Shown: in pieces, positions 25,352 through 53,293 of the stretch
Position numbering within the stretch: position 1 is the first letter of the stretch
Layout: every line of letters starts with the position of its first letter
Program-made: the position numbers and the translations under genes
Origin: Chloroflexota bacterium
Lineage (GTDB): Bacteria > Chloroflexota > Anaerolineae > Anaerolineales > JBFLVL01
Length of the DNA stretch: 64,000 nt
Assembly: GCA_040758495.1 (NCBI GenBank)
Contig: JBFLVL010000006.1
Span: 73,498-137,497 of the forward strand
Reading direction: 5' to 3'
The notes under the pieces: generated by a model
The model's database searches: none
What the model was told of the DNA's origin: nothing
The model's input: the letters and a program-made list of their open reading frames with translations, nothing else

Positions 25352-25855
25352 CGAGTGTTTCGATATGCCCTTCGACGGATAACTCCGCGGGTCGAGTGTC
25401 TCCTCTTACTCGCGGGTCGAGTGTCCCCTGCCCCCCGTATGGGGGGGCGTAGCGAGGATCGTATCGAGACCCGATTGTGATCTCGATACGCGCCCTTCGT
25501 ACCCCTACGGGGTACTTCGGGCGCTACTCGATCAGCCGAATTTCGCGGGTCGAGTGCCCCCTGCCCCCCGAACGGTGGGGGGGAACGTAGGTGAGGGTGT
25601 ATCGCCTGCCCTTGCGGTTTGGCCTGTCCCCGTAAGGGGGCAAGGGAGACCCCCCGGTGTTGATCTCGATACGCTTCGCTACTCGACTCAAGGGTCTCGA
25701 TACGGTGCCTTCGGCACCTACTCGACCAACAGAACATCGCGGGTCGAGTAGGGCGAAACGAAGTGCAGCCCATATCGAGACCCCTCGGCGTTGATCTCGA
25801 TACGCTTCGCTACTCGACCCAAGGGGCACACTCGACCAACTGTTGTGTACCTCCT
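25352..25855. repeat. Mosaic hairpin-module repeat cluster B (inverse orientation)
   Basis: Repeated gcgggtcgagtg, tatcgagac and tactcgac linkers join the hairpins ccccccgtatggggggg, gcgcccttcgtacccctacggggtacttcgggcgc and ggtgccttcggcacc. The cluster ends with tgtgtacctcct, similar to the terminal module of clusters G and I. Confidence 0.85.
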
Positions 25856-25915
25856 GATATATAATTTCTACATCTAAAACTTATGCTAATCATCAGACAT
25901 TGAAAGGTAATCAGG

Positions 25916-27040
25916 GTGAACGTACTCCAGGTTCGTCCACGGTTGAGCATCGGTGGGGCAACGGCTTACCTCCTCCTTCTGGTGGAGGGGTTTGCACAAC
26001 GCGGGCATAAGGTCGTGGTCGCCTCCGGAGGAGGTGTGTGGGAAGAAAGGTTACATCCGTCAGCGATTTACTACCCCCAGGTTGGTTTGCTGCCGCGCAT
26101 CAACCTGGGCAGGGTGTTCACTCTACCGAATGTGATGGATTTGTTCCTCTCGTTGTCTAAACTTATTCGGATTATACAAAGCGAAGAAATTGAGGTGATC
26201 AACACCCATCATCGCTTCGCCTCCCTGGTGTGCAGGTTGGCATCCAGAGAGACTGGCGTGCCTCTGGTTTCGACCATGCACGAGTTCCTGGGAGACCATA
26301 AGCTTCTGACGCGGGCAGGAATGGGGGATAAGGTGGTGGTATTAAGCTCGATGGTCAAACGGGCGGTGGTTGAAACCTACAAGCTGAAACCGGATCGGGT
26401 AGAGGTCATCCCTGTGGGGATACCCGTACCGCCTCCCTTGAAAGAGGCTCAAAAAGCCTCCTTGACCAAGGACCTGGGTTTGGAAGCCCAAGCCCCTATC
26501 ATCGTATGCATTGGAAGGCTGATAGCCAGGAAGGGGCAGAAGTATCTACTTCAGGCTATCCCTGGGGTTTTAAAATCCCACCCGCAGGCCCAATTTCTGT
26601 TCGTCGGCGTGGGAGATGACCAACCCGCGCTGGAAGCTCTGGCACGGGAATTGGGGATCACAGAGCAGGTCCGCTTCCTGGGTACCAGGGATGATGTCCC
26701 CAACCTGATCGGGCTGTGCGATTTTACCGTGCTGCCTTCCCTTCAGGAGGAGTTTGGCATTGTGCTGCTCGAATCGTTTGCCCAGAAAAAACCGGTAGTG
26801 GCTACCACGGTTGGGGGCATACCTGAGATTGTCCAAGAAGAGGAAAACGGGTTACTGGTGCCTCCACGGGATAGTCGGGCTTTGAGCGAGGCAATCAACG
26901 GTTTATTGGGCGACCGGAAACGGTTGAAGCGGCTGGGGGAAAATGGCTATCGGCTGGTGCTTGAGCAATACTCTGTCGAGGCTTTCCTGGACAAAACCGA
27001 GGACCTCTACAAAAGTCTCTCAGGACGGCGACAATGTTGA
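25916..27040 (+). CDS. GT4-family glycosyltransferase
   Basis: GGATAYLLLL... and EEFGIVLLESFAQKKPVVATTVGGIPE. Confidence 0.9.
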   Translation: MNVLQVRPRLSIGGATAYLLLLVEGFAQRGHKVVVASGGGVWEERLHPSAIYYPQVGLLPRINLGRVFTLPNVMDLFLSLSKLIRIIQSEEIEVINTHHRFASLVCRLASRETGVPLVSTMHEFLGDHKLLTRAGMGDKVVVLSSMVKRAVVETYKLKPDRVEVIPVGIPVPPPLKEAQKASLTKDLGLEAQAPIIVCIGRLIARKGQKYLLQAIPGVLKSHPQAQFLFVGVGDDQPALEALARELGITEQVRFLGTRDDVPNLIGLCDFTVLPSLQEEFGIVLLESFAQKKPVVATTVGGIPEIVQEEENGLLVPPRDSRALSEAINGLLGDRKRLKRLGENGYRLVLEQYSVEAFLDKTEDLYKSLSGRRQC

Positions 27041-27083
27041 GGCGGGCAAGCAGCCTGAAATCCCCTCTGCAGCTCGGTTAGGG

Positions 27084-28289
27084 TTAGGGGAAATCAAATG
27101 AGACCAGGTGAGAAACCGGGTCCACGGTAACAGACCCATTGGTGAAGTCCCTTTTCCAGACATCCCCCGAAGGGTAACGCCAGCCCAGGGGTTCCCCAAA
27201 GTCAATATCATAGACCGGGTAAAGCCAGATCTCCCGGTGGTGGTCGGCAAGGCTGTAGCGGAACGAAGCCCTGCCAGCGGTGACGAGCAGGTAACAGGCG
27301 AAGGCGAACTGCTGACGCTGGATGTCGTTGGGGTCGCCCTGCGAGACCAGGACGATCTCTTTACCCAACGCTTGGGTTTCTTCGGCAAGACGCAGTTGTT
27401 CTTCCCACTCCTCTGGTGTGAGGTATCCATCCGACCAGTCCACTGCCCAGGCCTCGACCATGGCGCCGTCCAGGTATTGAAGGTAGCGGAACCACACTGA
27501 CGGTTCTCTCAGAGAGATGATGTTAGCGAGCAAGGGGCGTCCGCGAGGTCGGAAGTAACTGGTATAGATGTAGCTCAGGAAGCCTTCGACCGCGGCCTGG
27601 AAACTGGCGTCGTCTGGGTAGTTGGCTAATGTGACCTCGCGCCTGGAATGCTTGGACATGGAGGCTTCCACGTTGTCCAGAAAGACGCCATCCCAGCCGA
27701 GGGTTTCCTGGCTCTGTTGGGCTCTCCCCAGCCAGAAAGCTCGCCATTCGGGGTTGCCTGGGTCCATGAGGACGAATCCCCCACTGCTCATGATGCGGTT
27801 TCCATTAACATCCAGGAGGAACCAGTCGGGGTGTTGCTGACTGATTGCGCAGAAGTCACCCGGGTTGTCGGCTACCTGGTTGCGCCAGGGTTGTTCCTGG
27901 CATGACCCGGGGTCTTGGATGGCATCGAAACGCAGGTACTGGAGAAAAGGGGCCTGAACCCCCATGGCGCGCAGATCATCGCGCCAGCCTTCATCGGCTT
28001 TGGTTAAAATGAAAGTGTCGAAGTGAGTCACCAGTGTGTTCAAATCGCCGTTTTCGGGTGGCTTGTAAAACCAGGCCATCCTTACCGGTTCACCCGCCAG
28101 TGAGAAGGGGGGCAGGCTGACCGGGGAAGCCTGTTCCCCTTTGGAGGTAATTGCGCTGTACAAGGTATACAGAGCGAAGATGATAGCAGCCGTGGGGATG
28201 GCTGCGACGATAATCCATAATAAAGTTTTAATGATTTTGCGGTTGTCCACGGGTAAGCGGCTCCAACGTGTGTTCTTCTGGCTGTACAA
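27084..28289 (-). CDS. Membrane-anchored putative glycoside-hydrolase-like protein (GH114/GHL-type TIM barrel)
   Basis: N-terminal TM. The pattern FDTFIL...WFLLDVNGN...VLMDPGNPEW...WDGVFLDNVE resembles GHL/GH114-type hydrolases. This is family recall only. Confidence 0.4.
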   Translation of the reverse strand: MYSQKNTRWSRLPVDNRKIIKTLLWIIVAAIPTAAIIFALYTLYSAITSKGEQASPVSLPPFSLAGEPVRMAWFYKPPENGDLNTLVTHFDTFILTKADEGWRDDLRAMGVQAPFLQYLRFDAIQDPGSCQEQPWRNQVADNPGDFCAISQQHPDWFLLDVNGNRIMSSGGFVLMDPGNPEWRAFWLGRAQQSQETLGWDGVFLDNVEASMSKHSRREVTLANYPDDASFQAAVEGFLSYIYTSYFRPRGRPLLANIISLREPSVWFRYLQYLDGAMVEAWAVDWSDGYLTPEEWEEQLRLAEETQALGKEIVLVSQGDPNDIQRQQFAFACYLLVTAGRASFRYSLADHHREIWLYPVYDIDFGEPLGWRYPSGDVWKRDFTNGSVTVDPVSHLVSFDFP

Positions 28290-28447: not shown

Positions 28448-28477
28448 TGCCCAAATCCTTCCCACATCGAGGTGAAC

Positions 28478-29750: not shown

Positions 29751-29753
29751 GAG

Positions 29754-30308: not shown

Positions 30309-30389
30309 GGACTGGCGAATAGCAGGCAGTTAAGATGCCGACTGTCCCTCACTAACGTTCGTATAACCTTTCACCCTGAGCCTTGGATC

Positions 30390-30535
30390 GAGTGGCGAAG
30401 CATATCGCCTGTCCTGCCCGCGGCCGCTGCCGCAGGCAGCAGGCTGGCGGGTTTAGCCAGGGAGATCGGAGGGCGAAGCCCGAAGTCGAAGGAAGCGGAG
30501 AGCTGTACGGCTCATAGTCGAAGGAACAAACTCCA
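30390..30535. repeat. Diverged mosaic hairpin-module segment (cluster C)
   Basis: gatcgagtggcgaagcatatcg resembles ttgagtagcgaagcgtatcgag of cluster E. It also has the cctgcccgcggccgctgccgcaggcagcagg hairpin. Confidence 0.4.
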
Positions 30536-31205: not shown

Positions 31206-31234
31206 CACGCTCTCAAATCGTCATCTATAAGGTG

Positions 31235-31575
31235 GATACAATCCTCACTTCCCTCGGATCACTCGACCCGCGAGGATACCCCTGTCCCTCCGTCGAGGCG
31301 ACGTCCCACCGTCGCCGTTTCCCTTGTTTGGAGGGGTCTCCCTTGCCCCCCATGCGGAGGACAGGCAGGCTCGACCCACGAATAAGAGGGGTCTCGATAC
31401 GCCCCTCGCTTCACTCGGGGCACTCGACCTGCGATATCCTGCTGGTCGAGTAGGTGCCGAAGGCACCGTATCGAGACCACCCTAAGACCAGGGCTCGGTC
31501 TCGATACAATCCTCGCCTTCGGCTCGGATCACTCGACCCGCGAGTAAGAGGGGACACTCGACCCGCGTGTTGAGT
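31235..31575. repeat. Mosaic hairpin-module repeat cluster D
   Basis: Contains cactcgacccgcg anchors and the ggcgacgtcccaccgtcgcc, ggtgccgaaggcacc and gtatcgagacc...ggtctcgatac modules. Confidence 0.85.
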
Positions 31576-31696
31576 GAGTTCCGCTAATCAACGCAAGGGA
31601 TACCCGACGTCCGTTCGGACAGTTATGGAACGAACCCCATACCGTTTCCTTCAATGCTATAATGGACTTGAAAACCCCTCTTTGTGAACGAAGGAA

Positions 31697-32404: not shown

Positions 32405-33050
32405 CGCCCCGCGAAATTCGGCTGATCGAGTAGCGCCCTAAGTACCCCGTAGGGGTACGAAGGGCGCGTATCGAGATCACAATCGGGTCAATACAATACT
32501 CCCCTTCGGCTCGCCCCCATACGGGGGCAGGGATCACTCGACCCGCGGAAGTCTGTTGGTCGAGTAGGTGCCGAAGGCACCGTATCGAGGCCACTGCCGA
32601 GGGGTCTCGATACGATCCTCGCCTTCGGCTCGGATCACTCGACCTGCGAGTAAGAGGGGGCACTCGACCCGCGGAAGTCTGTTGGTCGAGTAGGTGCCGA
32701 AGGCACCGTATCGAGGCCACCCTAAGACCAGGGCTCGGTCTCGATACAATCCTCGCCTTCGGCTCGCCCCCATACGGGGGCAGGGATCACTCGACCTGCA
32801 AGTAAGAGGAGGCACTCGACCCGCGATATCCTGCTGGTCGAGTAGGTGCCGAAGGCACCGTATCGAGACCACCCTAAGACCAGGGCTCGATACAATCCTC
32901 GCCTTCGGCTCGCCCCCATACGGGGGCAGGGATCACTCGACCTGCAAGTAAGAGGAGGCACTCGACCCGCGGAGGTCTGTTGGTTGAGTAGCGAAGCGTA
33001 TCGAGACCAAGGGCATGTATCGAAACCAACTTCGGTAAGGAGAGACCAGG
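32405..33050. repeat. Mosaic hairpin-module repeat cluster E (about 2.5 tandem ~150-nt super-units)
   Basis: Super-units start at about 32636, 32789 and 32933. Each reads cactcgacctgca-agtaagagg-cactcgacccgcg-...-ggtcgagtag-gtgccgaaggcac-cgtatcgagacc...ggtctcgatac-...-gcccccatacgggggc. Confidence 0.9.
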
Positions 33051-36397: not shown

Positions 36398-36705
36398 GGT
36401 AGCTGCTCAGGCATCCCTCGCCAGGGCTGGCAGGGCCCCCCATACGGGGGGCAGGCCCCCCATAGAGCTTGTGAAGAAATTATGGTTTCAGACAAAAGGA
36501 GAGCAGAGAAGGTGATCTCGGATCAGCTTACCGTTGCCTCCCAAGCCAGACCAAAGAGGTTGCCCTGATGCCCTGCTTCGAGCAGGCCCCCCTACGGGGG
36601 CAGGCAAAGTCCGTTCAAACGGACTGGAAGCCCAGTGCATTTTTTAGTCGGATTTCATCCGACTTTGGTTCTCAGCCTGAGAATTTATTCTCAGGCTTCA
36701 GGCTC
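36398..36705 (+). mobile_element. Truncated, longer copy of the GGTAACTGCTCAG-TIR MITE
   Basis: The left end ggtagctgctcaggcatccctcgc matches 44829-44852. The internal cagtgcattttttagtcggatttcatccgactttggttctcagcctgagaatt-attctcaggc is near-identical to 44958-45021. The right TIR is replaced by mosaic cluster F. Confidence 0.7.
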
Positions 36706-37265
36706 ACGAATAAGAGGGGTCTCGATACACCCCTCGTTCCACTCGGGGCACTCGACCCGTGGAAGTCTGTTGGTCGAGTAGGTGCCGAAGGCACCGTATC
36801 GAGACCAACACCGAGGGGTCTCGATACGATCCTCACTACGCTCGGATCACTCGACCCGCGAAATTCGGCTGATCGAGTAGCGCCCGAAGTACCCCGTAGG
36901 GGTACGAAGGGCGCGTATCGAGATCACAATCAGGTCAATACAATCCTCGCTCCGCTTCCCCCATGCGGGGGGCAGGGGGCACTCGACCCGCGATATCCTG
37001 CTGGTCGAGTAGGTGCCGAAGGCACCGTATCGAGACCAACACCGAGGGGTCTCGATACGATCCTCGCTACCCCCCATGCGGGGGGCAGGGGACACTCGAC
37101 CCGCGATATCCTGCTGGTCGAGTAGGTGCCGAAGGCACCGTATCGAGACCACCCTAAGACCAGGGCTCGGTCTCGATACAATCCTCGCCTTCGGCTCGCC
37201 CCCATACGGGGACAGGGATCACTCGACCTGCAAGTAAGAGGAGGCATTCGACCCGCGAACAAGAT
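36706..37265. repeat. Mosaic hairpin-module repeat cluster F
   Basis: Same modules as clusters D and E (cactcgacccg, ggtcgagtaggtgccgaaggcaccgtatcgagacc, gtaccccgtaggggtac, gcccccatacgggg). Confidence 0.9.
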
Positions 37266-37294: not shown

Positions 37295-40200
37295 TTGATA
37301 CCCATGGATAGCTCCCTCACAACAAAAAACATCCTCCGCTGGTTCGTCGTTGTCTCGTTGTTAATCGCTACTCCCTGGACAGGGTGGATTTTAGCCCAAG
37401 GGCAATCTGAAGATCAGACTCCTAATGTGCATATAGTACGCTCCAACGATGAGGGGATTTTGGTGGAATATCTCATGCCCAACCCCGAAGTATTCACCGA
37501 GGCTGTGCAATCAGGAGTTGGAGGACGTCTGGTTATACCTGGAATGTCCCTCTACCAGCAGCCTGGCAAACCACAATTACCCATACAAAGTGTACTGTTG
37601 GGTATACCCCCCAGCGGAGAAGTATCGCTCAATGTGATCCAGGCAGAAGGGGTGATTTTACCAGGTACCTATGATGTCCCTCCTTCCCCACAACCAGCAT
37701 CCATGGAGGAAGATCTCCAACCAGCAGGATGGCTTATTGGTGGGGAGGGTTACGTGGGTCTGCAGACTTTTCCCCAATCCCCGGCAAGCATAACCGATGA
37801 GGCCTGGCTACGCTCGCAGCGCTTAATTCGCCTGGAACTTTTCCCTTTTCAGTACAACCCCAGCCAAAAGACCCTGGTCTGGTACCCTCGATTGCTGGTA
37901 GAGATACGCTTCAGCTCCCAGGCCCGAAAGGCTGCCCAATCCGCTGCCTCAGGATGCCTCTTTGCCCGATGTTTTGAGGCGGCCTCGTTTGAGTCGGTGT
38001 TACAGAGTGCCTTGTTGAATTACGATCAGGCAAAGACATGGAGAATACCCCCCTATCAAAACCCGCAATTGAGCGCTCCAGCACCTGTATTTGCGGATTT
38101 TGCCCCTTCAAACTCCGGTGAGAAATACAAAATCGTTGTGGATACGGATGGTCTCTACACAGTGACGTATGCCGATCTGGTAGCCGCGGGTATGAATGTG
38201 GGCAGTGTAAACCCCCAGAATTTCCAGATGACCAATCAAGGACGGGGGGTTGCCATCTACGTTTCCGGTGAGGGCGACGGCAGTTTCGATCCTAGTGATG
38301 GGATATATTTTTACGGCGAGCAGTTCCGGGGAGATTATCTGGCCAGCCTGTATGCCTCCGAGGGGGAGGACTGGCTGTATCTATTTAACGGCGGACGCAA
38401 ATCGGATTTCAATGCCACCATGCTGGAGAAGTACACGCAAGACAATGTCTACTGGTTGACCGTCGGTTCTACGTCCGGTTTGAGGATGACGACAGTATCA
38501 GGAGACCCAACCGGAAGTTTGGCCTCCACTCCCCAGACTTTCACCGAGACGATACATGCTGAACAACAGATCGTCTGGTGGACATTTCACTTCACCAGCG
38601 AGGACACCTGGTTCTGGGATCACATCAACGATATCACCGCTCCCGTTACCAGGAATTATTCGTTTACGTTGACCAACGTAGCAACCGGAGCTTACAATGC
38701 CACTATCCGTGCCGAGGTAGTGCCCCGGAATCATAACCCGGATTCCAGCCCGGATCACCACACGAAGTTTTATATCCAGAACACCTCCCAACTGATAGAC
38801 GATGCCTATTGGGATGGGAAGGATCGTTATTCTTTTCAATCTGTCATCCCCCAGTCTCAATTGGTAGAAGGAAACAATATTCTCATTTTATGGGCTGAAA
38901 AGACCGCGGGGATGACATCCGACAGGCTGTACTTTGATTGGTTTGAAGTCGAGTATCAACGCCTCTATCAGGCACAAAGCGACGAGTTGACCTTTGGAGG
39001 TGACACTGCCGGTACCTGGAAATACCAGGTGCCAGGTTTTACCTCGGCAGACATTCGGGTGTTTGACATTACAAATCCCCTCCTGCCCACGCAATTTACT
39101 TCCCCGGAGATCGTTGGGGCTTCAGGGACATTTACTGTGACCTTTGAGGCCACCCACGGTGCCGGAGCGGAATTTATTGCTGCGGGGTCTTCCGGTGTAC
39201 ATCCCCCCAAGCAAATTACTCGTTATGTACCCCCCAATTTTGCCGGCCTCCCCGAAGCGGATTACATCTTTATCACCCATGCCGATTTCGCTGCCACCCT
39301 ACAAACCTTAGCGAATTTCCGTGCCGGGCAGGGTATGAGTACTTTGATTGTAGACGTAGCTGATTTGTACAACGAATTCAATTACGGCATCTACCATCCT
39401 ATAGCGATAAAAAATTTCCTGGCGTACACCTTTGCCAACTGGTTAAGCCCTCCAGAGTATGTGCTTTTGGTAGGGAGTGGACACTGGAACTTCCATGGGT
39501 CGCCAAACTACGGCAACCCAGCAATTTATATGCCACCCTATCTGGCTTTTCTTGACCTCAGCCAGGGTGAGGTAGACAGCGCCAACCAACTGGCCATGTT
39601 GGTGGGTGATGACATTTTGCCGGATGTGCATATCGGGCGGCTGCCGGTGAACAATACCACCGAATTAAACACGGTAATAAACAAAATCATCGCCTACGAA
39701 GGTGCGCCGGAAGCAAGCTGGCAGACATACTTTACCTTTGTGGCTGATAACACCCCTGACTCGGCGGGCGATTTTGTAGCCATGTCCGAGAGCGCTATCA
39801 GCAAATTGCCACCGGGAGCAAATGTAGATCGGATTTATTCGAACGACTATGCCAATGATGCGGCACAGGTTCGAACCGCTATCGCTAACAGCCTGAACAT
39901 AACCGGCACCCTGGTTTTGAATTACGTTGGACATGGCTCTATTCAGCGTTGGGCGCATGAAGAGATATTCCGAAACGCGGATGTGGCTACGCTGACGAAC
40001 ATCAACCAATTGCCTGTCGTGCTCTCCATGACCTGTCTGGATGCGTATTGGATTTACCCCAACCAACAGAGCCTCATCAATGAGATGTTGTTCTACACCA
40101 ATGGTGGCGCAGTGACGACCTTTTCGCCAACGGGTTTAGGGGTAGCTACCGGCCATGATGTCTTGCACGCTGGATTTTACGATGCCGTTTTCCATGATAA

Positions 40201-40453
40201 TGAGCAGGTCATGGGGCCGGTGACTTTGTTGGCGAAATTGGACCTCTATGCTACGGGACAGGATTTGGATTTGATCCAAACCTTCACCATTTTTGGTGAC
40301 CCTGCGCTTCACATTCAGGTGCCCAGCAGCCTGGAACCAACACCTACTCCGACACCAACCTTCACTAATACACCCACACCTACTTTTACTCATACCCCAA
40401 CCCCAACCCCGACTCCTTCTAAGATATTCATACCTATAGTGGTTCATCGTTAA
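37295..40453 (+). CDS. Secreted peptidase C25 (gingipain/PorU family) homolog with Thr/Pro-rich C-terminal tail
   Basis: Signal peptide and a GKPQLP propeptide-like motif. The catalytic region reads DYIFITHADF..LLVGSGHWNF..HIGRLPV..NYVGHGSIQRW..LSMTCLDAYW (His/Cys dyad context). The C-terminus is TPTPTPTFTNTPTPTFTHTPTPTPTPS. An alternative ATG at 37304 lies just downstream of a TATAAT at 37290-37295. Confidence 0.8.
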   Translation: MIPMDSSLTTKNILRWFVVVSLLIATPWTGWILAQGQSEDQTPNVHIVRSNDEGILVEYLMPNPEVFTEAVQSGVGGRLVIPGMSLYQQPGKPQLPIQSVLLGIPPSGEVSLNVIQAEGVILPGTYDVPPSPQPASMEEDLQPAGWLIGGEGYVGLQTFPQSPASITDEAWLRSQRLIRLELFPFQYNPSQKTLVWYPRLLVEIRFSSQARKAAQSAASGCLFARCFEAASFESVLQSALLNYDQAKTWRIPPYQNPQLSAPAPVFADFAPSNSGEKYKIVVDTDGLYTVTYADLVAAGMNVGSVNPQNFQMTNQGRGVAIYVSGEGDGSFDPSDGIYFYGEQFRGDYLASLYASEGEDWLYLFNGGRKSDFNATMLEKYTQDNVYWLTVGSTSGLRMTTVSGDPTGSLASTPQTFTETIHAEQQIVWWTFHFTSEDTWFWDHINDITAPVTRNYSFTLTNVATGAYNATIRAEVVPRNHNPDSSPDHHTKFYIQNTSQLIDDAYWDGKDRYSFQSVIPQSQLVEGNNILILWAEKTAGMTSDRLYFDWFEVEYQRLYQAQSDELTFGGDTAGTWKYQVPGFTSADIRVFDITNPLLPTQFTSPEIVGASGTFTVTFEATHGAGAEFIAAGSSGVHPPKQITRYVPPNFAGLPEADYIFITHADFAATLQTLANFRAGQGMSTLIVDVADLYNEFNYGIYHPIAIKNFLAYTFANWLSPPEYVLLVGSGHWNFHGSPNYGNPAIYMPPYLAFLDLSQGEVDSANQLAMLVGDDILPDVHIGRLPVNNTTELNTVINKIIAYEGAPEASWQTYFTFVADNTPDSAGDFVAMSESAISKLPPGANVDRIYSNDYANDAAQVRTAIANSLNITGTLVLNYVGHGSIQRWAHEEIFRNADVATLTNINQLPVVLSMTCLDAYWIYPNQQSLINEMLFYTNGGAVTTFSPTGLGVATGHDVLHAGFYDAVFHDNEQVMGPVTLLAKLDLYATGQDLDLIQTFTIFGDPALHIQVPSSLEPTPTPTPTFTNTPTPTFTHTPTPTPTPSKIFIPIVVHR

Positions 40454-40519
40454 CTGGAGTGGAAGCGAAGTGGTTGATGTGAAATTTAGGGAGGGATTTG
40501 TTATCCCGATGCAAGGATC

Positions 40520-40888
40520 AGGTTCGGCTCGCCTACGGGGGGCAGGCCATACGGGGGGCAGGGGACACTCGACCCGCGAGGATACCCCTGCCCCTCCGTC
40601 AAGGCGACGTCCCACCGTCGCCGTTTCCCTCGGGGGGCAGGGGATACTCGACCCGCGGAGGTCTGTTGGTCGAGTGTGCCCGAAGTGCCCCGCAGTGGCA
40701 CGAAGGGCATGTATCGAGACCAACATCGAGGGGTCTCCCTTGCCCCCCATGCGGGGGGCAGGCAGGCTCGACCCGCGAGGATACCCCTGCTCCTCCGTCA
40801 AGGCGACGTCCCACCGTCGCCGTTTCCCTACTCGACCCGCGATATCCTGCTGGTTTCGTTATTCAAGTGATGCGTAACTCCTGAGGAT
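40520..40888. repeat. Mosaic hairpin-module repeat cluster G
   Basis: Contains two copies of ctcgacccgcgaggatacccctgc-cctccgtcaaggcgacgtcccaccgtcgccgtttccc. It ends with the terminal module ttcaagtgatgcgtaactcct (tgcgtaactcct at 40871-40882). Confidence 0.85.
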
Positions 40889-40910
40889 ATTGGCTTGAAG
40901 AGCAGGAAAT

Positions 40911-41462
40911 ATGGCTAGTAGCTGGAATGAACCGTTGCGCCCAGGCAAAGAGGGGCTGATCGCCTTCAAGGTCAAGGGTGACAGCATGGTTCCTATCCTG
41001 CACCCTGGGGATATCGTTCATGTAGACCCTGGGCCAGGGATATCCTATCGTGTGGGAGATGTGGTGCTCATATTCCGTAAGGAGGAGCTGATCACGCACC
41101 GCTTGCTTTATAAAGTTGTAGAAGGCTGGTACACCAAGGGGGACAATCGTCTGGACCTCGACCCTGTGGTTAATGAACAATCTATGATTGGTAAGGTGGT
41201 CGTTTTGGAGAAGGCCGGGAAAAGGATTGACCTTCAAAAGCCCTTTTGGCGAAGTGCCAATCGGGTAATGGGAAGTCTGCATTGGCTTTTCGTTTTATGC
41301 TTTGATAAAATTCGGTTGTTTGCGTCTTGGAGCAGACTCAACCGTTATCCCTTGTTTAAGCGTTGCGGAAGGAAAACTATGCTCATTATCCAGAAAGCCA
41401 TCTCCGTCACGATACTTTTTAGTGGAAGGGTGTTGGCGATTTTTGATCGGAGGGGAGGATGA
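40911..41462 (+). CDS. S26B (SipW/Sec11/archaeal-type) signal-peptidase-like serine peptidase
   Basis: Boxes KGDSMVPIL, GDIVHV, LITHRLL (His rather than Lys) and YTKGDNRLDLDP. It has no N-terminal TM; a hydrophobic segment sits near the C-terminus. Confidence 0.65.
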   Translation: MASSWNEPLRPGKEGLIAFKVKGDSMVPILHPGDIVHVDPGPGISYRVGDVVLIFRKEELITHRLLYKVVEGWYTKGDNRLDLDPVVNEQSMIGKVVVLEKAGKRIDLQKPFWRSANRVMGSLHWLFVLCFDKIRLFASWSRLNRYPLFKRCGRKTMLIIQKAISVTILFSGRVLAIFDRRGG

Positions 41463-41758
41463 GGTTGACTTTGGAATCGCGCCCTCTTTGCCATCCCGAG
41501 GTGGTCGGTCGGGTCGTGGAGGACGAAGCGGTCATCGTCCTGCCGGAAAAGGGGCAGGTCAAGGTGCTGAACGCGGTAGGAGCGCGCATCTGGTCTCTGC
41601 TGGATGGCTCCCGCAGGGTGAGGGAGGTCGTTGAGGAGTTGTGTAATGAGTACGACGTCACGCACGCGGAAATGGAGTCCGATGCTCTGGCTTTTTTAAC
41701 GGAGTTATTAGAGGAGGGGGCAATCGTATTGTCTTCGGAAGAGATTCCAGAGAGTTGA
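41459..41758 (+). CDS. PqqD-family protein (RiPP recognition element-like)
   Basis: VVEDEAVIVLPEKGQVKVLNAVGARIWSLLDGSRRVREVVEELCNEYDV...DALAFLTELLEEGAIV. ATGA overlap with the peptidase gene. Confidence 0.8.
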   Translation: MRLTLESRPLCHPEVVGRVVEDEAVIVLPEKGQVKVLNAVGARIWSLLDGSRRVREVVEELCNEYDVTHAEMESDALAFLTELLEEGAIVLSSEEIPES

Positions 41759-41785
41759 TCCTTGTCCCATAAAAAAGTATTTTCT

Positions 41786-42610
41786 ATGAAGGTCAGGTAT
41801 CTGATTGGGACAATTGTCATTTTCACCCTGGCGGGTTTAGGCCTTGTCGTTTTTACCCGTGTGGGAAGCGCGGCTGTTACCCTGGTCAGTTTTACGGCTA
41901 CACCTGGTGACAGTAAGGTGACGCTGGATTGGGAAACGGCCTCGGAGATTGATTTCGCCGGCTTTTTTGTCCAGCGCAGTACCCAGGAAGATGGCACCTA
42001 TGCTCGCATCAGCCCCTTCATCCCTGCGGAGGGGGATAGCATTGTGGGGGCAAGGTACAGTTTTGTGGACACGAATGCGGTCAATGGCAGCACCTATTAC
42101 TACAAGCTGGAGGCCATTAATAACGACCAGACGTACGAACTGCACGGCCCCGTTTCGGCTACCCCTGGCAGCTCAATAACCACCACTCCCACGGCCACCC
42201 GCACACCCACCCCAACGACTTCGGGCACGGTATCTCCCAGCCCCACACCCACGCGCACACGGACCCCAACGCGGACCCCTACCCGTGGTACCCCTACCAA
42301 GACTCCAACAGGCACGATTTCCCCCACCGCAACCGACACCCCCTCAGCCACCCCCTCTCCGGAATTCACGGCAACACCGACCGTGACTCCTACCTTTACG
42401 CCCTTTGTAATCTCACTGCCGACTCTGGCCCTGCCCTCAAGGACTCCCACGCCAACGGAAACTCCCCTTCCCCCAAGTGAGGAGGTAGGGGGAGGCCAGG
42501 GATTGCCTATAGGTTTTCGCCTGGGGTTGCTTGCCTTGGGGATTAGCGTGGTGGGCGGAGGGTTGTTCGCTGCGGCGATATATTTCTTTTATAGACGAGG
42601 TGGCTGGTGA
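41786..42610 (+). CDS. Membrane-anchored protein with the shared beta-sandwich-like domain (paralog 3), Thr/Pro-rich linker and C-terminal TM
   Basis: TLVSFTATPGDSKVTLDWETASEIDFAGFFVQRS...GARYSFVDT...YYYKLEAI, then about 100 aa of TPTPT-type linker, then TM + YRRGGW. Confidence 0.75.
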   Translation: MKVRYLIGTIVIFTLAGLGLVVFTRVGSAAVTLVSFTATPGDSKVTLDWETASEIDFAGFFVQRSTQEDGTYARISPFIPAEGDSIVGARYSFVDTNAVNGSTYYYKLEAINNDQTYELHGPVSATPGSSITTTPTATRTPTPTTSGTVSPSPTPTRTRTPTRTPTRGTPTKTPTGTISPTATDTPSATPSPEFTATPTVTPTFTPFVISLPTLALPSRTPTPTETPLPPSEEVGGGQGLPIGFRLGLLALGISVVGGGLFAAAIYFFYRRGGW

Positions 42611-44763
42611 TAGACCGCCTGAATATATTCATTCGGGGGAGAGTCTCTGCACGGCTTTTGGGCATACTGGCTGTCAGTTCCCTGATTTCTGCTTACCTGA
42701 ATGGTTGTTCGCCTTCTGGGAACGTGGTCGGGTCTGACCTGCCTCCCAGTGAGGGAGTGAAGTTAATGATTCCCACCACCGGAATCTACGAAGTCTCCTC
42801 CCAAGCGTTGCGCGCGGTTTGGGGAAAACAAATTGAGCCGGGCACCTTGCAGCTTACGTACGAGGGAGGTCCACAACCCATCTGGCTGGTGAGGGATGGT
42901 AGTGAGTGGCGCCTCCGTTTTTACGCCCAGGCTACGGATAGCGAGTACACTGCAGATAATGTGTATTGGTTATCCGAAGGTGAAACCCCTTGGTTGTTGA
43001 TCAATGAGGTGCCTCATGGGGTAGGGGAGGCGGGCTCCGAGCTGATCCACCAATACACGGCTACTATCCATCAGGAAGAGAATCTGCGTTTTCTGCCCAA
43101 GGTTGAGAGCGGGGATCACTGGTTGTGGCTGGCGATGACCGCACCTCAGGGGGAGACTTTCACCCTGAAACTGGACGCGCTGGCTCCTGGTGGAGGGTAT
43201 CTGCGCGTGGGGCTATGGGGAAGTACGGAGGCGGAGGACAGTGAGGCTGATCATCATCTCCGCGCCAGCCTTAACGGTCAGTTGGTCGCCGAGGCCCGTT
43301 GGGATGGTGTGGGACGCTATGTCCTAGAGGGTGAGGTACCCCCAGGGTTGTTGCGTGAGGGCGAAAACGAAATCAGCCTGGAGGCACCCGGCGATACCGG
43401 CGTGCTTGTAGATACGGTCGTCCTGGATTGGATCGAATTGGATTACCCCCGCTTTCTTGTGCCTGGAGAGGGCCAGCTCAGCTTTGAGGGTTTTGATGGG
43501 ATGATTGGGTTGGTAGGTTTTCCGGAGGGCGTGGATGTTTTCGAGCGTCTTCCGACGGGTGAGATGAACCATTTCACATCGCTTTATCAAAGTGGTGATT
43601 CGTTCTACTTCATGGGACACTCTGGACGGCATTACACTGTTGTGCCCAATGGAGCTTATTTGCAGCCCAGCGCAATGCATCCTGCCTCCTTACTCCCTGA
43701 CCTGCGTGCCTTAGAAGGAGCCGATTATCTGGTCATCGCTCCCCAGGATTTTCTACCCTATGTGGAACCTCTCCTCGAATACCGGCGTCAGCAGGGGTTA
43801 GCGGCTCTGTCCATTCCCGTGGAAGCGGTGTACGACCAGTTCAACTTCGGCTTGCCAGAGCCCCAAGCCATCCAGGCTTTCCTTCGTTACGCCGCAGCTC
43901 AGTGGAATCCCAGCCCTCGCTATCTTTTACTTGTTGGGGATACCACCTACGATGTCCATGGCTATCAGGTATCTACTGATTGGAATAGGATGCCTACTTT
44001 TTGGATGGATACCATCTTTGGAGGTGTGACTGCCTCTGACATATTCTACGCCCTCGTAGATGACGACCCCCGACCGGATATTGCGGTTGGTCGCTTTCCC
44101 GTTCAAACAACTGAGCAGTTGCAGCGTATGATAGCCAAGACCCTGGCTTACGAACAAGATCCCCCACAAGGTGAATGGCAGAGTCTCGTCCTTGGCGTTG
44201 CGGATGGGGATGCTCCGTCCTTTGAAGGCGATGCCCAAGCCTTTTTGGCTCATTTTTCATCCCCTTACAAGACAAGGCTCTTCGTGCCCGAAGCAGGGGA
44301 GCAGGGGGTTAATCAAAAAGTGATAGAGTTTATTAATAAGGGCGTCTTTCTGATCGCCTATTTTGGTCACGGCAGTGTAACCCAGTGGGGCAAAGGTGGT
44401 ATTTTTTACGCCCAGGATGTAGGGCAGCTTGCCAACAGTCATCTGCCCATCATCGTGAACATGACCTGTTTGACAGGATTATTTACCCATCCGCAGGTAG
44501 ATTCGCTGGCTGAGACCTTATTATGGAAAGCGGACGGCGGGGCGGTTGCGGTGCTGGCCCCTACCAGCTTAACGTTACCCCAGGACCAGAATGTGCTCAG
44601 CGATGCGCTGGCTCAGGCCTGGCTAGCGGATGCACCCTCCAGGTTGGGGGAGATACTTCTGCATGCCTGGAACCAGGTTCCCCTGGAGGACGAGACTGTG
44701 AGAGAAGTACTGTATACCTTCCTGCTGTTTGGTGATCCAGCTCTGGTAATACCAGCGCCTTAA
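42607..44763 (+). CDS. Peptidase C25 (gingipain/PorU family) homolog, probable lipoprotein
   Basis: LISAYLNGC lipobox-like signal. The catalytic region reads DYLVIAPQDF..LLLVGDTTYDVHG..AVGRFPV..AYFGHGSVTQW..VNMTCLTGLF. GTGA overlap with the upstream gene. Confidence 0.8.
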   Translation: MIDRLNIFIRGRVSARLLGILAVSSLISAYLNGCSPSGNVVGSDLPPSEGVKLMIPTTGIYEVSSQALRAVWGKQIEPGTLQLTYEGGPQPIWLVRDGSEWRLRFYAQATDSEYTADNVYWLSEGETPWLLINEVPHGVGEAGSELIHQYTATIHQEENLRFLPKVESGDHWLWLAMTAPQGETFTLKLDALAPGGGYLRVGLWGSTEAEDSEADHHLRASLNGQLVAEARWDGVGRYVLEGEVPPGLLREGENEISLEAPGDTGVLVDTVVLDWIELDYPRFLVPGEGQLSFEGFDGMIGLVGFPEGVDVFERLPTGEMNHFTSLYQSGDSFYFMGHSGRHYTVVPNGAYLQPSAMHPASLLPDLRALEGADYLVIAPQDFLPYVEPLLEYRRQQGLAALSIPVEAVYDQFNFGLPEPQAIQAFLRYAAAQWNPSPRYLLLVGDTTYDVHGYQVSTDWNRMPTFWMDTIFGGVTASDIFYALVDDDPRPDIAVGRFPVQTTEQLQRMIAKTLAYEQDPPQGEWQSLVLGVADGDAPSFEGDAQAFLAHFSSPYKTRLFVPEAGEQGVNQKVIEFINKGVFLIAYFGHGSVTQWGKGGIFYAQDVGQLANSHLPIIVNMTCLTGLFTHPQVDSLAETLLWKADGGAVAVLAPTSLTLPQDQNVLSDALAQAWLADAPSRLGEILLHAWNQVPLEDETVREVLYTFLLFGDPALVIPAP

Positions 44764-44828: not shown

Positions 44829-45043
44829 GGTAACTGCTCAGGCATCCCTCGCACCGGATTGATCCTTCGGCTAGCTCACCTGTGCCTGCGGCACTGGCGC
44901 AGGCAGGACAAGAATCCAGGGCTGACAGACAAAATCTGTTCAAACGGGTTGACAGCTCAGTGCATTTTTTAGTCGGATTTCATCCGACTTTGGTTCTCAG
45001 CCTGAGAATTCATTCTCAGGCGTATGCAGGCTGAGCAGTTACC
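44829..45043 (+). mobile_element. MITE (215 bp) with 13-bp terminal inverted repeats and 6-bp target-site duplication
   Basis: TIRs are ggtaactgctcag (44829-44841) and ctgagcagttacc (45031-45043). They are flanked by direct agacag (44823-44828 and 45044-45049). Internal hairpins are agtcggatttcatccgact and cctgagaattcattctcagg. Confidence 0.85.
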
Positions 45044-46999: not shown

Positions 47000-47705
47000 C
47001 TCGATATACTCCCTTCGTGCTCCTACGGGGTACTTTGGGAGTTACTCGACCAACTGCAATTCGCGGGTCGAGTGCCCGAAACGAAGTGAAGGGCGTATCG
47101 AGACCCTCTTTTCGTTGAGGACCTTGTCTAGGTCGAGACCCCCTCCAAACAAGGGAAACGGCGACGGTGGGACGTCGCCTTGACGGGGGGGCAGGGGTAT
47201 CCTCGCAGGTCGAGTGCCTCCTCTTACTTGCAGGTCGAGTGATCCCTGTCCCCGTATGGGGGCGAGCCGAAGGCGAGGATTGTATCGAGACCAAGCCCTG
47301 GTCTTAGGGTGGTCTCGATACGGTGCCTTCGGCACCTACTCGACCAACAGGATATCGCGGGTCGAGTGATCCCTGTCCCTGTATGGGGGTGAGCCGAAGG
47401 CGAGGATTGTATCGAGACCGAGACCTGGTCTTAGGGTGGTCTCGATACGGTGCCTTCGGCACCTACTCGACCAGCAGGATATCGCAGGTCGAGTGATCCC
47501 TGTCCCCGTATGGGGGCGAGCCGAAGGCGAGGATTGTATCGAGACCGAGCCCTGGTCTTAGGGTGGTCTCGATACGGTGCCTTCGGCACCTACTCGACCA
47601 GCAGGATATCGCGGGTCGAGTAGGGCGAAACGAAGTGCAGCCCATATCGAGACCCCTCGGTGTTGGTCTCAATACGCCGCTTTCAGGGACACTTGACCTG
47701 CAACG
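47000..47705. repeat. Mosaic hairpin-module repeat cluster H (inverse orientation) with three tandem 127-bp units
   Basis: ggtcgagtgatccctgtcc recurs at 47233, 47360 and 47487, and ggtcgagt again at 47614, a 127-bp period. Each unit carries the ccccgtatggggg, gtatcgagacc...ggtctcgatac, ggtgccttcggcacc and ctcgacc...ggtcgag hairpins. Confidence 0.9.
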
Positions 47706-50729: not shown

Positions 50730-50829
50730 TCAGTTCTTTGCCAGATAAATTATTATTTAGGTTAGCAGGCTATGATAATTGAACATAGAGGATGAAATTA
50801 TAACAAAAAAGGTAGATATGCGCATTATT

Positions 50830-51999
50830 TTATTGGCATACCGCCGAGATCACTGTATTAATTTGTGCCTCACTCATTGTGGGATACAGAGGTAAGGTGA
50901 CTTCGCGTTGAGCAACCTCTTCTGTGTTGGAGAGGCGGATGTCAGGATATAGATGTCTGTAATAGCTAAAGGTATGTATCGGTGGATAATGAATGCTGGT
51001 TTGAATACCCTTTTCTCTCAAGTTATCCATAAAAGCTTGACGGTCAGAACCGGGTGGCAGAAGGACAGGAAAGATGTGATGAGCTGATTGTCCTTTATGT
51101 TGTGTGAAGGGAATTTCCAGTGAGGTATGGTTTAGGGCTTGTCGGTATTGGTCGGTTATTTGCGCTCGTTTCAGATTATTTTGTTCTAATTTTTCCAATT
51201 GCACGATACCTAACGCCGAACGAATCTCGTCCAACCGGTAATTGTAGCCTAATTCGATAACATCGTACGAATAAGCATGCCCTTGATGACGGTCCCAGGT
51301 CATGGTCGTCATGCCATGCGAACGCAGCAAACGTACTTTCTCGGCGACCTCGTGGCGGTTGGTTACTAACATGCCTCCTTCGCCGGTGACGAGATTCTTG
51401 TTGGAGAAGAAACTAAAGCAGCCAGCGTCTCCCCAGGTTCCCAAATAGCGTCCCTTCAATGTGGCTCCCGGAGCGTGGGCTGCGTCTTCGATAATTACCA
51501 GGTTGTGGCGCTCGGCGAGGGACTCAATGTCTTCCATGCGACAGGGGTAACCACCGTAGTGCATCACGATGATCCCTTTGGTCTGGGGGGTGATGTTGCG
51601 TTCGATGTCTTCTGGTGAGATGTTCAACTCCTGTGAGCTGAGGATATCTGCAAATCGGACATGTGCGCCTGTGTAACGCACCGCGTTGGCAGTAGCCACA
51701 AAGGATAATGAGGGAACGATCACCTCATCCCCTTTCCCAAACCCCAGAGCGATACAAGCCAGGTGTAAAGCGACAGTGGCGTTAGATACGGCTATGGCAT
51801 ACTTTACGCCCAAGAATTCAGCAAACCGACCTTCGAATTCCTGGGTGACTGAACCCATTGTCAACCAACGGCTGTGTAACACGCGAAGGACGGCCTCTTC
51901 CTCCTGGGGGCCAAAGTCCAGGTCAGATAGTGGTACGCGCCATTCCATTTTTTTAACCGGTAATGTTGAAGAGTGGAAATCCATTCTGAGATCAATCAT
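50830..51999 (-). CDS. DegT/DnrJ/EryC1-family PLP-dependent sugar aminotransferase
   Basis: Typical fold pattern, including FFSNKNLVTGEGGML (Lys in SNK). The start could instead be M at 51948. Confidence 0.85.
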   Translation of the reverse strand: MIDLRMDFHSSTLPVKKMEWRVPLSDLDFGPQEEEAVLRVLHSRWLTMGSVTQEFEGRFAEFLGVKYAIAVSNATVALHLACIALGFGKGDEVIVPSLSFVATANAVRYTGAHVRFADILSSQELNISPEDIERNITPQTKGIIVMHYGGYPCRMEDIESLAERHNLVIIEDAAHAPGATLKGRYLGTWGDAGCFSFFSNKNLVTGEGGMLVTNRHEVAEKVRLLRSHGMTTMTWDRHQGHAYSYDVIELGYNYRLDEIRSALGIVQLEKLEQNNLKRAQITDQYRQALNHTSLEIPFTQHKGQSAHHIFPVLLPPGSDRQAFMDNLREKGIQTSIHYPPIHTFSYYRHLYPDIRLSNTEEVAQREVTLPLYPTMSEAQINTVISAVCQ

Positions 52000-52702
52000 C
52001 CCCTAAGATGAGGTTCCTAATGTCGTTGAACTCATCTATAGCTCGTTTGTAATCGTCTGGGTGTCCCAAGTCCTGCCAATACCCATCATAAGGATATCCT
52101 CTGACATGTTCCTGATTCTTGACCAGCTTGAGTACCAGATCGGGGAAGTCTAGATATTGATTGTAGGGGATGTAATCTAGAACGCGGGGTTCAAAGACGT
52201 AGATCCCCATGCTGACGTTATAGTCATACGTGGGTTTTTCGCTGTAATCTATCACCTTATTAGTGCCATCGGTGTGAATCACTCCCAGTTCGATCTTCAC
52301 CTGGCGAGTGTGCATGGCAATGGTGGCAACAGCAGAAGATCGCTTATGAGCCAGGAGGAGGTCGTGCAGGTTCAGGGTGGTGAGGACGTCCCCATTGGTG
52401 ACCAGGAATGTATCTTTCAAATCCGGTATCAAGGATAGAGGTCCCGCGGTCCCCAGGGGTTTCTCTTCGTAGCTATAGTGGATGTTTAGACCCAATTGGG
52501 TGCCATCTTTGAAGAAGGCACGCAGCAGCTCTGCAAGATGGCCTACGGTCAGGTAGACATCATTGATTCCTGCGCGGGCCATTTGACGAAGGATGATCTC
52601 CAAGATGGGCATATCATCAATGGGCATCAACGGTTTGGGGAGTATCTTGGTGTAGGGGTCTAAACGAGTGCCTTTCCCCCCTGCCAGAACGACTGCTTTC
52701 AT
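51992..52702 (-). CDS. Sugar-1-phosphate nucleotidylyltransferase
   Basis: MKAVVLAGGKGTRLDPYTKILPKPLMPI. The track ORF start at 52720 is also possible. Confidence 0.85.
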   Translation of the reverse strand: MKAVVLAGGKGTRLDPYTKILPKPLMPIDDMPILEIILRQMARAGINDVYLTVGHLAELLRAFFKDGTQLGLNIHYSYEEKPLGTAGPLSLIPDLKDTFLVTNGDVLTTLNLHDLLLAHKRSSAVATIAMHTRQVKIELGVIHTDGTNKVIDYSEKPTYDYNVSMGIYVFEPRVLDYIPYNQYLDFPDLVLKLVKNQEHVRGYPYDGYWQDLGHPDDYKRAIDEFNDIRNLILGDD

Positions 52703-52736
52703 TCCTTTCCTCCTAAACATTTTTTTCGATAAGTGC

Positions 52737-53025
52737 TTATATCTCGTCGTAAAGATCTCTCCATTCAGGATTGATACGGTTGATCAGATCGATTTTTTTT
52801 CTGTCTAGAACCACCTTTGATCTGTTTTTCCCGCGCTATTGCAGCATAAATATCATCATCGAATTCAAAATACACAAGTTTTTTCACATTGTATTTCCTG
52901 GTAAATTTACTCCCTATCTCTTCTTTATGTTCGAATACGCGCCTTTTCAGATCGTTAGTAACACCTGTGTATAGAACGGTATTATTCTTGTTGGTCATGA
53001 TGTAGACAAAGTATTGTTGGGTCAT
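52737..53025 (-). pseudogene. GIY-YIG (UPF0213-type) nuclease gene with apparent frameshift in an A8/T8 homopolymer
   Basis: The N-terminus is YFVYIMTNKNNTVLYTGVTNDLKRRVFEH. After ...GGSRQKK the annotated frame ends as NRSDQPYQS*. The -1 frame reads IDLINRINPEWRDLYDEI*, the canonical family C-terminus. The T8 run is at 52793-52800. Confidence 0.7.
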
Positions 53026-53097
53026 CAGGTGATTGTTGGGAGAGAAATGACATAAACAAGAAAGATGTCGTTGCGAGCCTTGCGAAGCAACCTTTAA

Positions 53098-53293
53098 CTT
53101 GATTAATCAGGAGTTACGCAGTTCGCTGATCGAGTGGCCCTGTAAGGGCCGTATCGAGATCAAGAACTGCACTAAAATGGGTCTCCCTTGCCCAGACCGC
53201 AAGGGCAGGCGATACAATCCTCGCCTTCGGCTCGCCATACGGGGGCAGGGATCACTCGACCTGCCGGTTTCTTTAATCAAGTGCGTAACTCCT
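53098..53293. repeat. Mosaic hairpin-module cluster I bounded by 12-nt inverted repeats
   Basis: aggagttacgca (53109-53120) pairs with tgcgtaactcct (53282-53293). The interior holds ggccctgtaagggcc, cttgcccagaccgcaagggcagg, gccatacgggggc and cactcgacc modules. Confidence 0.8.

Follow-up and report, generated by a model that had tools for sequence, protein, structure and literature searches.

The stretch of DNA analysed here (hereafter the window; 64,000 nucleotides of contig JBFLVL010000006.1 from a Chloroflexota bacterium) carries a polysaccharide-biosynthesis island with toxin-antitoxin (TA) pairs (PIN; HEPN plus nucleotidyltransferase), two C25 peptidases and an extracytoplasmic function (ECF) sigma factor, and it also contains nine clusters of GC-rich palindromic repeats, referred to below as family A. 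That the source is a metagenome-assembled genome of the Chloroflexota is borne out by one of the window's proteins, which has a 100% identical match annotated accordingly; the named relatives of this protein are Anaerolineae such as Bellilinea. On the basis of the window sequence and its Pfam-annotated open reading frames (ORFs), all nine clusters are present between long ORFs, at the positions given in the initial annotation of this sequence, and their spans total ~3.56 kb, in agreement with its estimate of ~3.5 kb. Close to the last cluster there is a gene for a small UPF0213/Slx1-like GIY-YIG nuclease, and this work concerns the structure of the repeats, their distribution, and their association with nuclease genes of this type.

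The sequence modules quoted in the initial annotation were found where it had placed them. In the window, GGTGCCGAAGGCACC occurs 11 times (both strands counted), the exact GTATCGAGACC motif 24 times and ACTCGACC/GGTCGAGT 46 times. When one mismatch was allowed, GTATCGAGACC gave 37 matches, all of them within clusters and none outside, compared with 0.74 ± 0.88 in shuffled sequences, and a count of 37 was reached in 0 of 100 shuffles. A strict pattern for the unit described below identified 37 family-A units of alternating orientation. In the larger clusters this pattern covers ~40-60% of the sequence, the remainder being variant units (e.g. GGTCGAG...GGGAGACC) and extra hairpins (e.g. GGCGACG..CGTCGCC), and some hairpins are inserted within tails.

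The clusters had been viewed as a free vocabulary of shuffled hairpins, but they consist mostly of one composite unit with a variable central hairpin. The family-A unit (~30-60 nt) contains a head (GGTCGAGTA), a central GC hairpin free in sequence and length, and a tail (GTATCGAGACC); it can be written GGTCGAGT-[hairpin]-GTATCGAG(ACC), with the consensus 5'-GGTC GAGTA [variable GC stem] GTATCGA GACC-3'. The GGTGCCGAAGGCACC module, the nested GTACCCCGTAGGGGTAC hairpin (GTACCCC..GGGGTAC) and GCCCCC..GGGGGC are alternative central hairpins of this unit, two inverted units meet tail to tail in GTATCGAGACC-N-GGTCTCGATAC, and adjacent units meet head to head in CTCGACC-N14-GGTCGAG. The central stem is mostly capped by a C-GNA-G triloop, and the mini-hairpin GCGAAGC recurs among the central hairpins. 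Head and tail covary at their outer ends, where the four initial bases of the former are complementary to the four final ones of the latter (GGTC/GACC, GATC/GATC). The association of GATC heads with GATC tails was significant both in the window (Fisher p = 2e-4) and in loci elsewhere (p = 1e-9), and in another lineage GGTT heads pair with AACC tails. Because its ends are complementary and covarying, each unit forms an extended, imperfect hairpin whose conserved internal loop is purine-rich (GAGTA opposite GTATCGA).

When folded as DNA, single family-A units gave z values of -3.9 to -4.9. Two inverted units make up a dimer of 100-130 bp, a single strand of which can fold into a four-way junction, as predicted for the window dimer at 32553-32650 (z = -5.15 as single-stranded DNA). 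In a set of 108 non-redundant dimers, self-pairing of the central hairpin was evident at stem position 2 (96% canonical versus 57% in shuffles) and at position 5 (87% versus 44%), GC and CG pairs both being frequent at the tested positions. In the same set, pairing between the two central hairpins of one dimer was at the shuffle level, and because these hairpins do not pair mutually the dimer was rejected as a simple long hairpin. The triloops are strand-specific, with GNA in 121 of 172 cases and the complement TNC in 3 of 172. GNA triloops closed by a C-G pair are unusually stable in single-stranded DNA and represent a DNA-type stability motif. The stems show no excess of G-T (G-U) over A-C (151 versus 139), the unit hairpins lack T-tails, and terminator-like sites in the window were not enriched (21 versus 19.3 expected). 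Rfam yielded no match at the gathering score in the window and no relevant hit at E <= 1 when 10 unit-rich loci were searched. The strand-specific DNA-type loops, together with the lack of a G-T excess and of T-tails, therefore point to folded DNA rather than to RNA, and neither the punctuation of transcripts by termination nor the RNA-level signature considered in the initial annotation was borne out. A structured-RNA cloverleaf was also rejected, since symmetric stems hold all of the conserved bases, wobble asymmetry is lacking, and the loops belong to the DNA type.

A scan for tail-to-tail hairpins identified at least 120 loci in public metagenomes and at least 120 in GTDB species representatives (at least 240 in total), all of which share an identical head and tail around unrelated central hairpins. 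The 240 loci contain ~730-750 family-A units, a figure that varies with the length limit set for the central hairpin. Named hosts belong to the Actinomycetota (Agromyces, Nocardioides, Gordonia, Aeromicrobium, Flexivirga, Rathayibacter and other Microbacteriaceae) and to the Chloroflexota (metagenome-assembled genomes of Anaerolineales and Chloroflexia). The window-specific junction GGTGCCGAAGGCACCGTATCGAG had no exact match in GTDB representative genomes, which indicates that this subfamily, the window's own, is missing from the species representatives. Since hundreds of contigs, unrelated and drawn from many assemblies, contain family-A units, an assembly artefact is excluded, and the recurrence of the same head and tail in other genomes and metagenomes likewise disposes of local duplication, the other artefact that had been envisaged.

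Inverted dimers with spacers of ~10-40 nt predominate in these loci, although this predominance is partly a product of the search pattern. The initial annotation had proposed a comparison of strains for presence/absence polymorphism, and such polymorphism was observed between related species: in three pairs of orthologous intergenic regions, the difference amounts to exactly one dimer (locus pairs L148/L230, L036/L120 and L178/L182). Moreover, in Agromyces subbeticus (L185, 6790-6860) a family-A dimer is translated in frame within the linker of a ClpC-like protein (GRVATQERIETPSPGLDTAAGGLLDRR), and the orthologous locus L220 is devoid of the dimer.

Among the 57 ORFs located between two units, GIY-YIG was the commonest Pfam family. 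A profile search of the 240 loci identified seven small GIY-YIG genes, and all seven were bracketed by unit arrays, compared with an expectation of 0.1-1. The association was also approached from the protein side by tracing homologs (472 clusters, mostly from Nocardioides) to their contigs, which were then searched for units. In three loci obtained in this way (L241, L245 and L246) the gene is flanked on either side by family-A units, of which the nearest lie 63-70 bp before the ATG start codon and at -9 to +5 nt from the stop codon. All 21 units of these loci are within 600 bp of the gene and none was found elsewhere in them (p = 1e-14). Variant units lie beside the GIY-YIG gene in L243/L244 and in L242, and the stop codon of some GIY-YIG genes is the TAG of a unit head. 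The initial annotation had suggested looking for a gene similar to those of the tyrosine transposases linked to repetitive extragenic palindromes (REPs), known as RAYTs. With Pfam, no Y1_Tnp/RAYT domain was detected in the 40 window ORFs scanned, a subset of the total, or in the 57 unit-flanked ORFs, and the gene that is bracketed codes instead for a small GIY-YIG nuclease. A phmmer search of 1.56 Mb of loci with RayT and IS608 TnpA queries, which constitutes a weak test, gave no match either.

Some further features of the GIY-YIG loci were observed. A TCCACA(G) motif, which may serve as a promoter element or as a site of recognition, is conserved in L241, L243, L245 and L246 about 10-20 nt after the upstream unit and before the GIY-YIG start codon. 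Many GIY-YIG genes are on metagenome contigs of only 500-1500 bp, a length consistent with flanking repeats that break assemblies. In some annotated GIY-YIG proteins, e.g. P0128, the N-terminal extension is a translated repeat unit.

In the GIY-YIG gene of the window, a frameshift is located at an A8 run: the unrepaired ORF ends at 52765, and the conserved C-terminus (KKIDLINRINPEWRDLYDEI) runs on in the +1 frame. The gene is either a pseudogene or affected by a homopolymer sequencing error. The frame-repaired product has 95 amino acids and shares 75-78% identity with proteins of Roseiflexus and Anaerolineales, which are the best named matches among at least 7985 clusters of homologs; its similarity to NCBIfam families is only weak and sub-threshold. 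This gene is probably the partner of a second repeat, family B, rather than of family A. Family B shares the family-A architecture, with a head (GTCATTGCGA), a GNA-capped hairpin and a tail (GAAGCAATCTC), and for a single family-B unit the folding z value is -3.1. The family-A cluster at 53.1 kb is placed within the family-B element upstream of the GIY-YIG gene, and because it sits between family-B units it looks like a nested insertion.

The Roseiflexus and metagenome homologs of the window GIY-YIG gene are likewise bracketed by family-B units. In Roseiflexus sp. BPIA01000001 (L247, 1583220-1588510) the gene is located between cas4 and cas1 of a type I-C-like cas operon that has family-B arrays in several intergenic gaps, and on a metagenome contig the family-B-bracketed gene lies inside a restriction-modification operon. 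In Methylobacterium and Sphingomonas the homologs are flanked by other inverted repeats with GCGTAGC/GCGAAGC mini-hairpins. The whole-replicon count of genes and repeats, carried out for the Methylobacterium replicon only, revealed a single GIY-YIG gene and at least 40 places with the flanking repeat.

The GIY-YIG protein is a stand-alone domain of ~95 amino acids (Pfam PF01541) that contains neither a C-terminal Asn nor extra domains, as is characteristic of UPF0213 and prokaryotic Slx1-like proteins. Its sequence matches UPF0213 proteins (PDB 1ZG2 and 1YWL; E = 6e-12), the catalytic residues Y16, R26, H30 and E63 are invariant, and Y6 is nearly invariant. A structure model with a predicted local distance difference test score (pLDDT) of 90 gave UPF0213 as the best fold match, followed by the nuclease domain of Slx1, from which it differs by a root-mean-square deviation of ~2 Å over ~70 residues. 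The Slx1 nuclease cuts branched DNA, according to a statement made for the family (PMC7017083). An extra DNA-binding domain of the kind expected in homing endonucleases of the I-TevI type was not found in the GIY-YIG protein. Dunin-Horkawicz et al. (2006) placed the stand-alone proteins in the Slx1 lineage and considered them vertically inherited and not selfish, and they left open whether further GIY-YIG members are molecular parasites.

Family A resembles REPs and BIMEs (bacterial interspersed mosaic elements) in being made of short, GC-rich, imperfect palindromes that are intergenic and present in many copies, in forming inverted dimers and alternating arrays with head-to-head and tail-to-tail junctions, and in occasional in-frame copies within genes. 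A GTAG or GTGG tetranucleotide 0-2 nt 5' of the hairpin, typical of REPs, is also present (head GGTCGAGTAG, whose final G opens the stem). The comparison with BIMEs made in the initial annotation thus holds for alternating, GC-rich palindromic, mosaic and intergenic units, whereas BOX elements share modularity only. In contrast to REPs and BIMEs, family A has long, conserved and mutually covarying flanks around a freely variable hairpin, its near-identical flanks are common to two phyla, and no repeat-flanked RAYT gene, that is, no Y1 HUH gene, was found among the scanned window ORFs or the unit-flanked ones. The similarity extends to the systems formed by RAYTs and REP doublets forming hairpins (REPINs), in which a small nuclease gene is also bracketed by repeats and enzyme subfamilies are matched to repeat sequences. 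Nevertheless, the gene bracketed here encodes a GIY-YIG (Slx1/UPF0213) protein and not an HUH tyrosine transposase. As regards the dimers, it is entire dimers whose presence varies between orthologous sites, although their central hairpins do not pair mutually.

MITEs (miniature inverted-repeat transposable elements) and their autonomous insertion sequences (ISs) are comparable in that short non-coding copies with inverted ends exist alongside a longer gene-carrying copy and are present or absent at orthologous sites; family A differs from them in that no DDE transposase or target-site duplication was seen and in that it also amplifies as tandem arrays. The IS200/IS605 elements provide a plausible model for the recognition of a folded single-strand hairpin with adjacent conserved nucleotides, and the family-A loops are indeed strand-specific. 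Unlike those elements, family A has no TnpA or TnpB that could be found and is symmetric, with no distinct left and right ends. The GIY-YIG protein matches the UPF0213 proteins (Escherichia coli YhbQ, Bacillus subtilis YazA, BH0048 and EF2693) in sequence and the nuclease domain of Slx1 in fold, and the branched DNA cut by Slx1 finds a counterpart in the four-way junctions that dimers can form, but it differs from the Slx1-Slx4 system in having no RING/PHD domain and no Slx4 partner. BOX (Streptococcus) and Correia/CGTC (Neisseria) elements are likewise modular, hairpin-forming intergenic repeats, yet they show no sequence relation to family A and a different module logic, and a GIY-YIG gene has not been reported in association with them. 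CGTC REPs have no known transposase either. Within the GTAG-tagged REP superfamily, Di Nocera et al. (2013) describe GTAG-23, a repeat of the Chloroflexi T. roseum and R. castenholzii that is clustered and inserted in small palindromes; GTAG-23 may be the same repeat as family A.

We favor the explanation, with a probability of roughly 0.58, that the clusters are arrays of one REP/BIME-like family whose members are non-autonomous, REPIN/MITE-like copies of a selfish element borne by a GIY-YIG gene. The full element would be composed of a gene for a ~95-amino acid UPF0213/Slx1-like GIY-YIG nuclease between inverted units, and different nuclease subfamilies would be paired with different head and tail sequences. 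The nuclease would recognize the folded hairpin or branched DNA of the units and nick or cut there, and repair or re-ligation would then copy, move or amplify the units, so that the enzyme would drive their spread. A more general proposal, which we advance tentatively and at slightly worse than even odds, is that stand-alone Slx1-like GIY-YIG nucleases of the UPF0213/YhbQ type act in many lineages as the engines of an unrecognized class of selfish DNA, with one gene enclosed by inverted hairpin units and with intergenic copies that lack the gene and number tens to hundreds. Such elements of Chloroflexota, Actinomycetota and Alphaproteobacteria would amount to a second REPIN-RAYT-like system, mechanistically distinct and acting on hairpin or four-way-junction DNA. 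Sequence-string and keyword searches of the literature retrieved no paper linking GIY-YIG proteins to REP-like repeats.

Several observations weigh against the existence of a GIY-YIG-borne element. To our knowledge, no GIY-YIG enzyme transposes DNA, and bracketing of the gene would also be expected if it preferentially inserted into repeat arrays. The unit nearest the GIY-YIG gene is not uniform in orientation (L207, L152), and no target-site duplication was evident in the three comparisons of filled and empty sites, where the junctions are blurred by divergence. The window itself harbors no GIY-YIG gene of the family-A type, its sole one being the frameshifted family-B type, and the pattern of one gene and many repeats was observed in the Methylobacterium replicon, the one replicon in which genes and repeats were counted. 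A RAYT could be encoded elsewhere in these genomes, given that the locus screen consisted of the weak phmmer test and of Pfam on a subset of the ORFs. Finally, E. coli yhbQ, which belongs to the same protein family, has no flanking repeats, and therefore the link to repeats is not valid for the protein family as a whole.

The main competing explanation, which we regard as unlikely, is that the repeats are spread or maintained by other means (a host function, slippage, recombination or an unseen transposase) and that the GIY-YIG gene is a separate selfish or homing-type gene that inserts into arrays or survives in them. Some ISs do target REPs, which offers an analogy for a gene that parasitizes repeats, and the gene was always found inside arrays, with flanking units of non-uniform orientation. 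Its context also varies among species (the cas operon, the restriction-modification operon and housekeeping neighborhoods), indicating that the gene itself moves. Against this possibility, four nuclease subfamilies each reside in a different repeat family of one and the same architecture, which speaks for cognate recognition more than for an unspecific preference for repeats. In addition, the spacing between gene and units is fixed both upstream of the start (63-70 bp) and downstream at the stop codon (0-5 nt), the latter codon being supplied in some cases by the head's own TAG; the units of the loci found from the protein side are restricted to the surroundings of the gene; and the ~95-amino acid protein has no extra DNA-binding domain such as homing endonucleases carry.

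The remaining explanations appear less likely. That family A is a classical RAYT-dependent REP/BIME, with GTAG 5' of the hairpin as the guide for a RAYT encoded elsewhere in the genome, is improbable in our view: it would account for GAGTAG immediately 5' of each hairpin, for the alternating orientation within arrays and for the clustered GTAG-tagged family of Chloroflexi described by Di Nocera et al. (2013), but neither the Pfam scan of the 40 window and 57 unit-flanked ORFs nor the weak phmmer test of the loci revealed such an enzyme, and the gene in the bracketed, RAYT-like position is GIY-YIG in every case. Of still slightly lower probability is that the units act primarily at the RNA level or as sites bound by host proteins on DNA (protection of mRNA 3' ends, punctuation of operons, nucleoid or topoisomerase binding), which would make them host rather than mobile elements. 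Roles in mRNA and in the binding of host proteins are established for the BIMEs of E. coli, the hairpins of family A are very stable, and clusters directly follow stop codons within co-directional gene strings. However, T-tails, terminator enrichment, a G-U over A-C excess and Rfam matches are all absent, the GNA triloops are of the DNA type, and the presence or absence of dimers at orthologous sites, even in frame in the ClpC-like ORF, fits insertion better than a fixed function, although RNA or host roles could persist as a secondary use. Hardly tenable is the view that the units are integron attC sites between cassettes, or an artefact of assembly or duplication, even though short genes including TA cassettes are separated on one strand by palindromic spacers. 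Integron attC sites are made of R''/L''-L'/R' boxes with a GTTRRRY core; reading through the units against this consensus revealed no such conserved core, the arrays reach 700 bp, and no integrase was found among the scanned ORFs, while the recurrence of the same units in unrelated contigs effectively refutes an artefact.

REP-type repeats rank with the commonest non-coding elements in the genomes of bacteria, and we know of an enzyme only for those linked to RAYTs, whereas none is known for the CGTC-tagged families and many others. If true, a consistent link between GIY-YIG nucleases and REP-like repeats across phyla would assign to the large UPF0213/YhbQ family a function that can be tested, would explain repeats that break metagenome assemblies and yield spurious ORFs, would add a new enzyme class to hairpin- or branched-DNA-dependent mobility, and would supply compact structure-specific nucleases with defined DNA substrates. 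As for the window, the clusters are shown to be general genomic repeats and not components of the neighboring TA or peptidase "system".

The features of the window are compiled in Table 1. The initial annotation had observed that clusters flank TA cassettes and separate the genes of a candidate system; this is correct as to position, but the link is positional only, because the repeats fill intergenic spacers generally. The array at 25352 is flanked by the terminator of a BcsB-like gene and by the next glycosyltransferase gene, that at 32405 begins 3 nt past the stop codon of the nucleotidyltransferase gene, and that at 47000 has a LysM-domain gene on one side and an ABC transporter gene on the other, both of them minus-strand genes. 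In the favored explanation, the arrays of the window are passive intergenic residents of the polysaccharide/TA island, and any effects on mRNA would be secondary. The terminal module TGCGTAACTCCT that several clusters had been said to share is exact at 40871(+), 53109(-) and 53282(+), the last two copies forming an inverted pair (53109-53120 and 53282-53293) that brackets the 53.1-kb cluster, whereas the copy at 25844 has two mismatches and, taken alone, is within chance.

Table 1. Repeat clusters, family-B repeats and GIY-YIG gene of the window (window coordinates; orientation of units in parentheses)
Feature	Coordinates	Strand	Units	Composition and remarks
Small family-A cluster	8995..9095		one variant unit, ~8997-9052(-)	Head GGTCGAG, two inner GC hairpins, tail CGAGACC; no TA...GTAT core, hence missed by the strict pattern; direct reading
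Family-A array	25352..25855		at least 6: 25415-25456(+), 25482-25533(-), 25665-25688(-), 25696-25727(-), 25742-25779(+), 25796-25819(-)	Hairpin inserted in tail at 25598-25650
Degenerate family-A remnant	30386..30535			GATCGAGT-GGCGAAGC-ATATCG at 30386-30407, then more GC hairpins; direct reading
Family-A array	31235..31590		31393-31429(-), 31444-31475(+), 31500-31538(-)	3' of PIN gene; GGCGACG..CGTCGCC module at 31297-31316
Family-A array	32405..33050		8, alternating: 32424-32475(+), 32558-32589(+), 32606-32644(-), 32684-32715(+), 32740-32796(-), 32836-32867(+), 32886-32942(-), 32982-33005(+)	
Family-A array	36706..37265		8: 36721-36757(-), 36772-36803(+), 36820-36856(-), 36871-36922(+), 37003-37034(+), 37063-37101(-), 37116-37147(+), 37172-37228(-)	Upstream of first C25 peptidase gene
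Mixed array	40520..40888		one strict unit, 40668-40718(+)	Variant units with GGGAGACC tail; two GGCGACG..CGTCGCC modules; terminal TGCGTAACTCCT at 40871-40882
Family-A array	47000..47705		10	Includes three 127-bp tandem dimers, 47230-47621
GIY-YIG nuclease gene, UPF0213/Slx1-like	52737..53025	minus		PF01541, E = 4.9e-18
Family-B unit	53067..53094	plus		Head GTCGTTGCGA, hairpin, tail GAAGCAACCTT; 42 nt upstream of GIY-YIG start codon
Family-A cluster	53098..53293		one strict unit, 53128-53158(+)	Also partial units
Family-B dimer	53362..53448		53362-53399(+), 53415-53448(-)	Head GTCATYGCGA, GNA-capped hairpin, tail GAAGCRATCTC

Some other observations were made in the window. The G+C content is 55-67% over the first 9 kb and ~50% after, and the repeat-rich polysaccharide/TA island may be a compositionally distinct insertion. 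The region 37295-44763 contains two C25 (gingipain-like) peptidase genes around genes for an S24-like peptidase and a PqqD-like protein and an ORF of 282 amino acids that has no annotation; this region, which may serve peptide maturation, probably corresponds to the initial annotation's candidate system, the repeats merely separating its genes. A 162-nt triple repeat (58720-58900, 59495-59675 and 60591-60771) was discarded as a non-coding repeat, since it corresponds to the conserved ends of paralogous glycosyltransferase-type genes, and it is unrelated to the clusters. A 14-nt tandem repeat of ~5 copies (TGAATGGTTAATTG-like, 57932-58001) overlaps the 3'-terminal, lower-coordinate end of the minus-strand glycosyltransferase ORF 57699-58853. 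Lastly, a 96-nt repeat that is unrelated to families A and B is present at 36601-36696 and 44926-45021; its two copies are 91% identical and contain three small, AT-richer hairpins with T-runs that resemble terminators.

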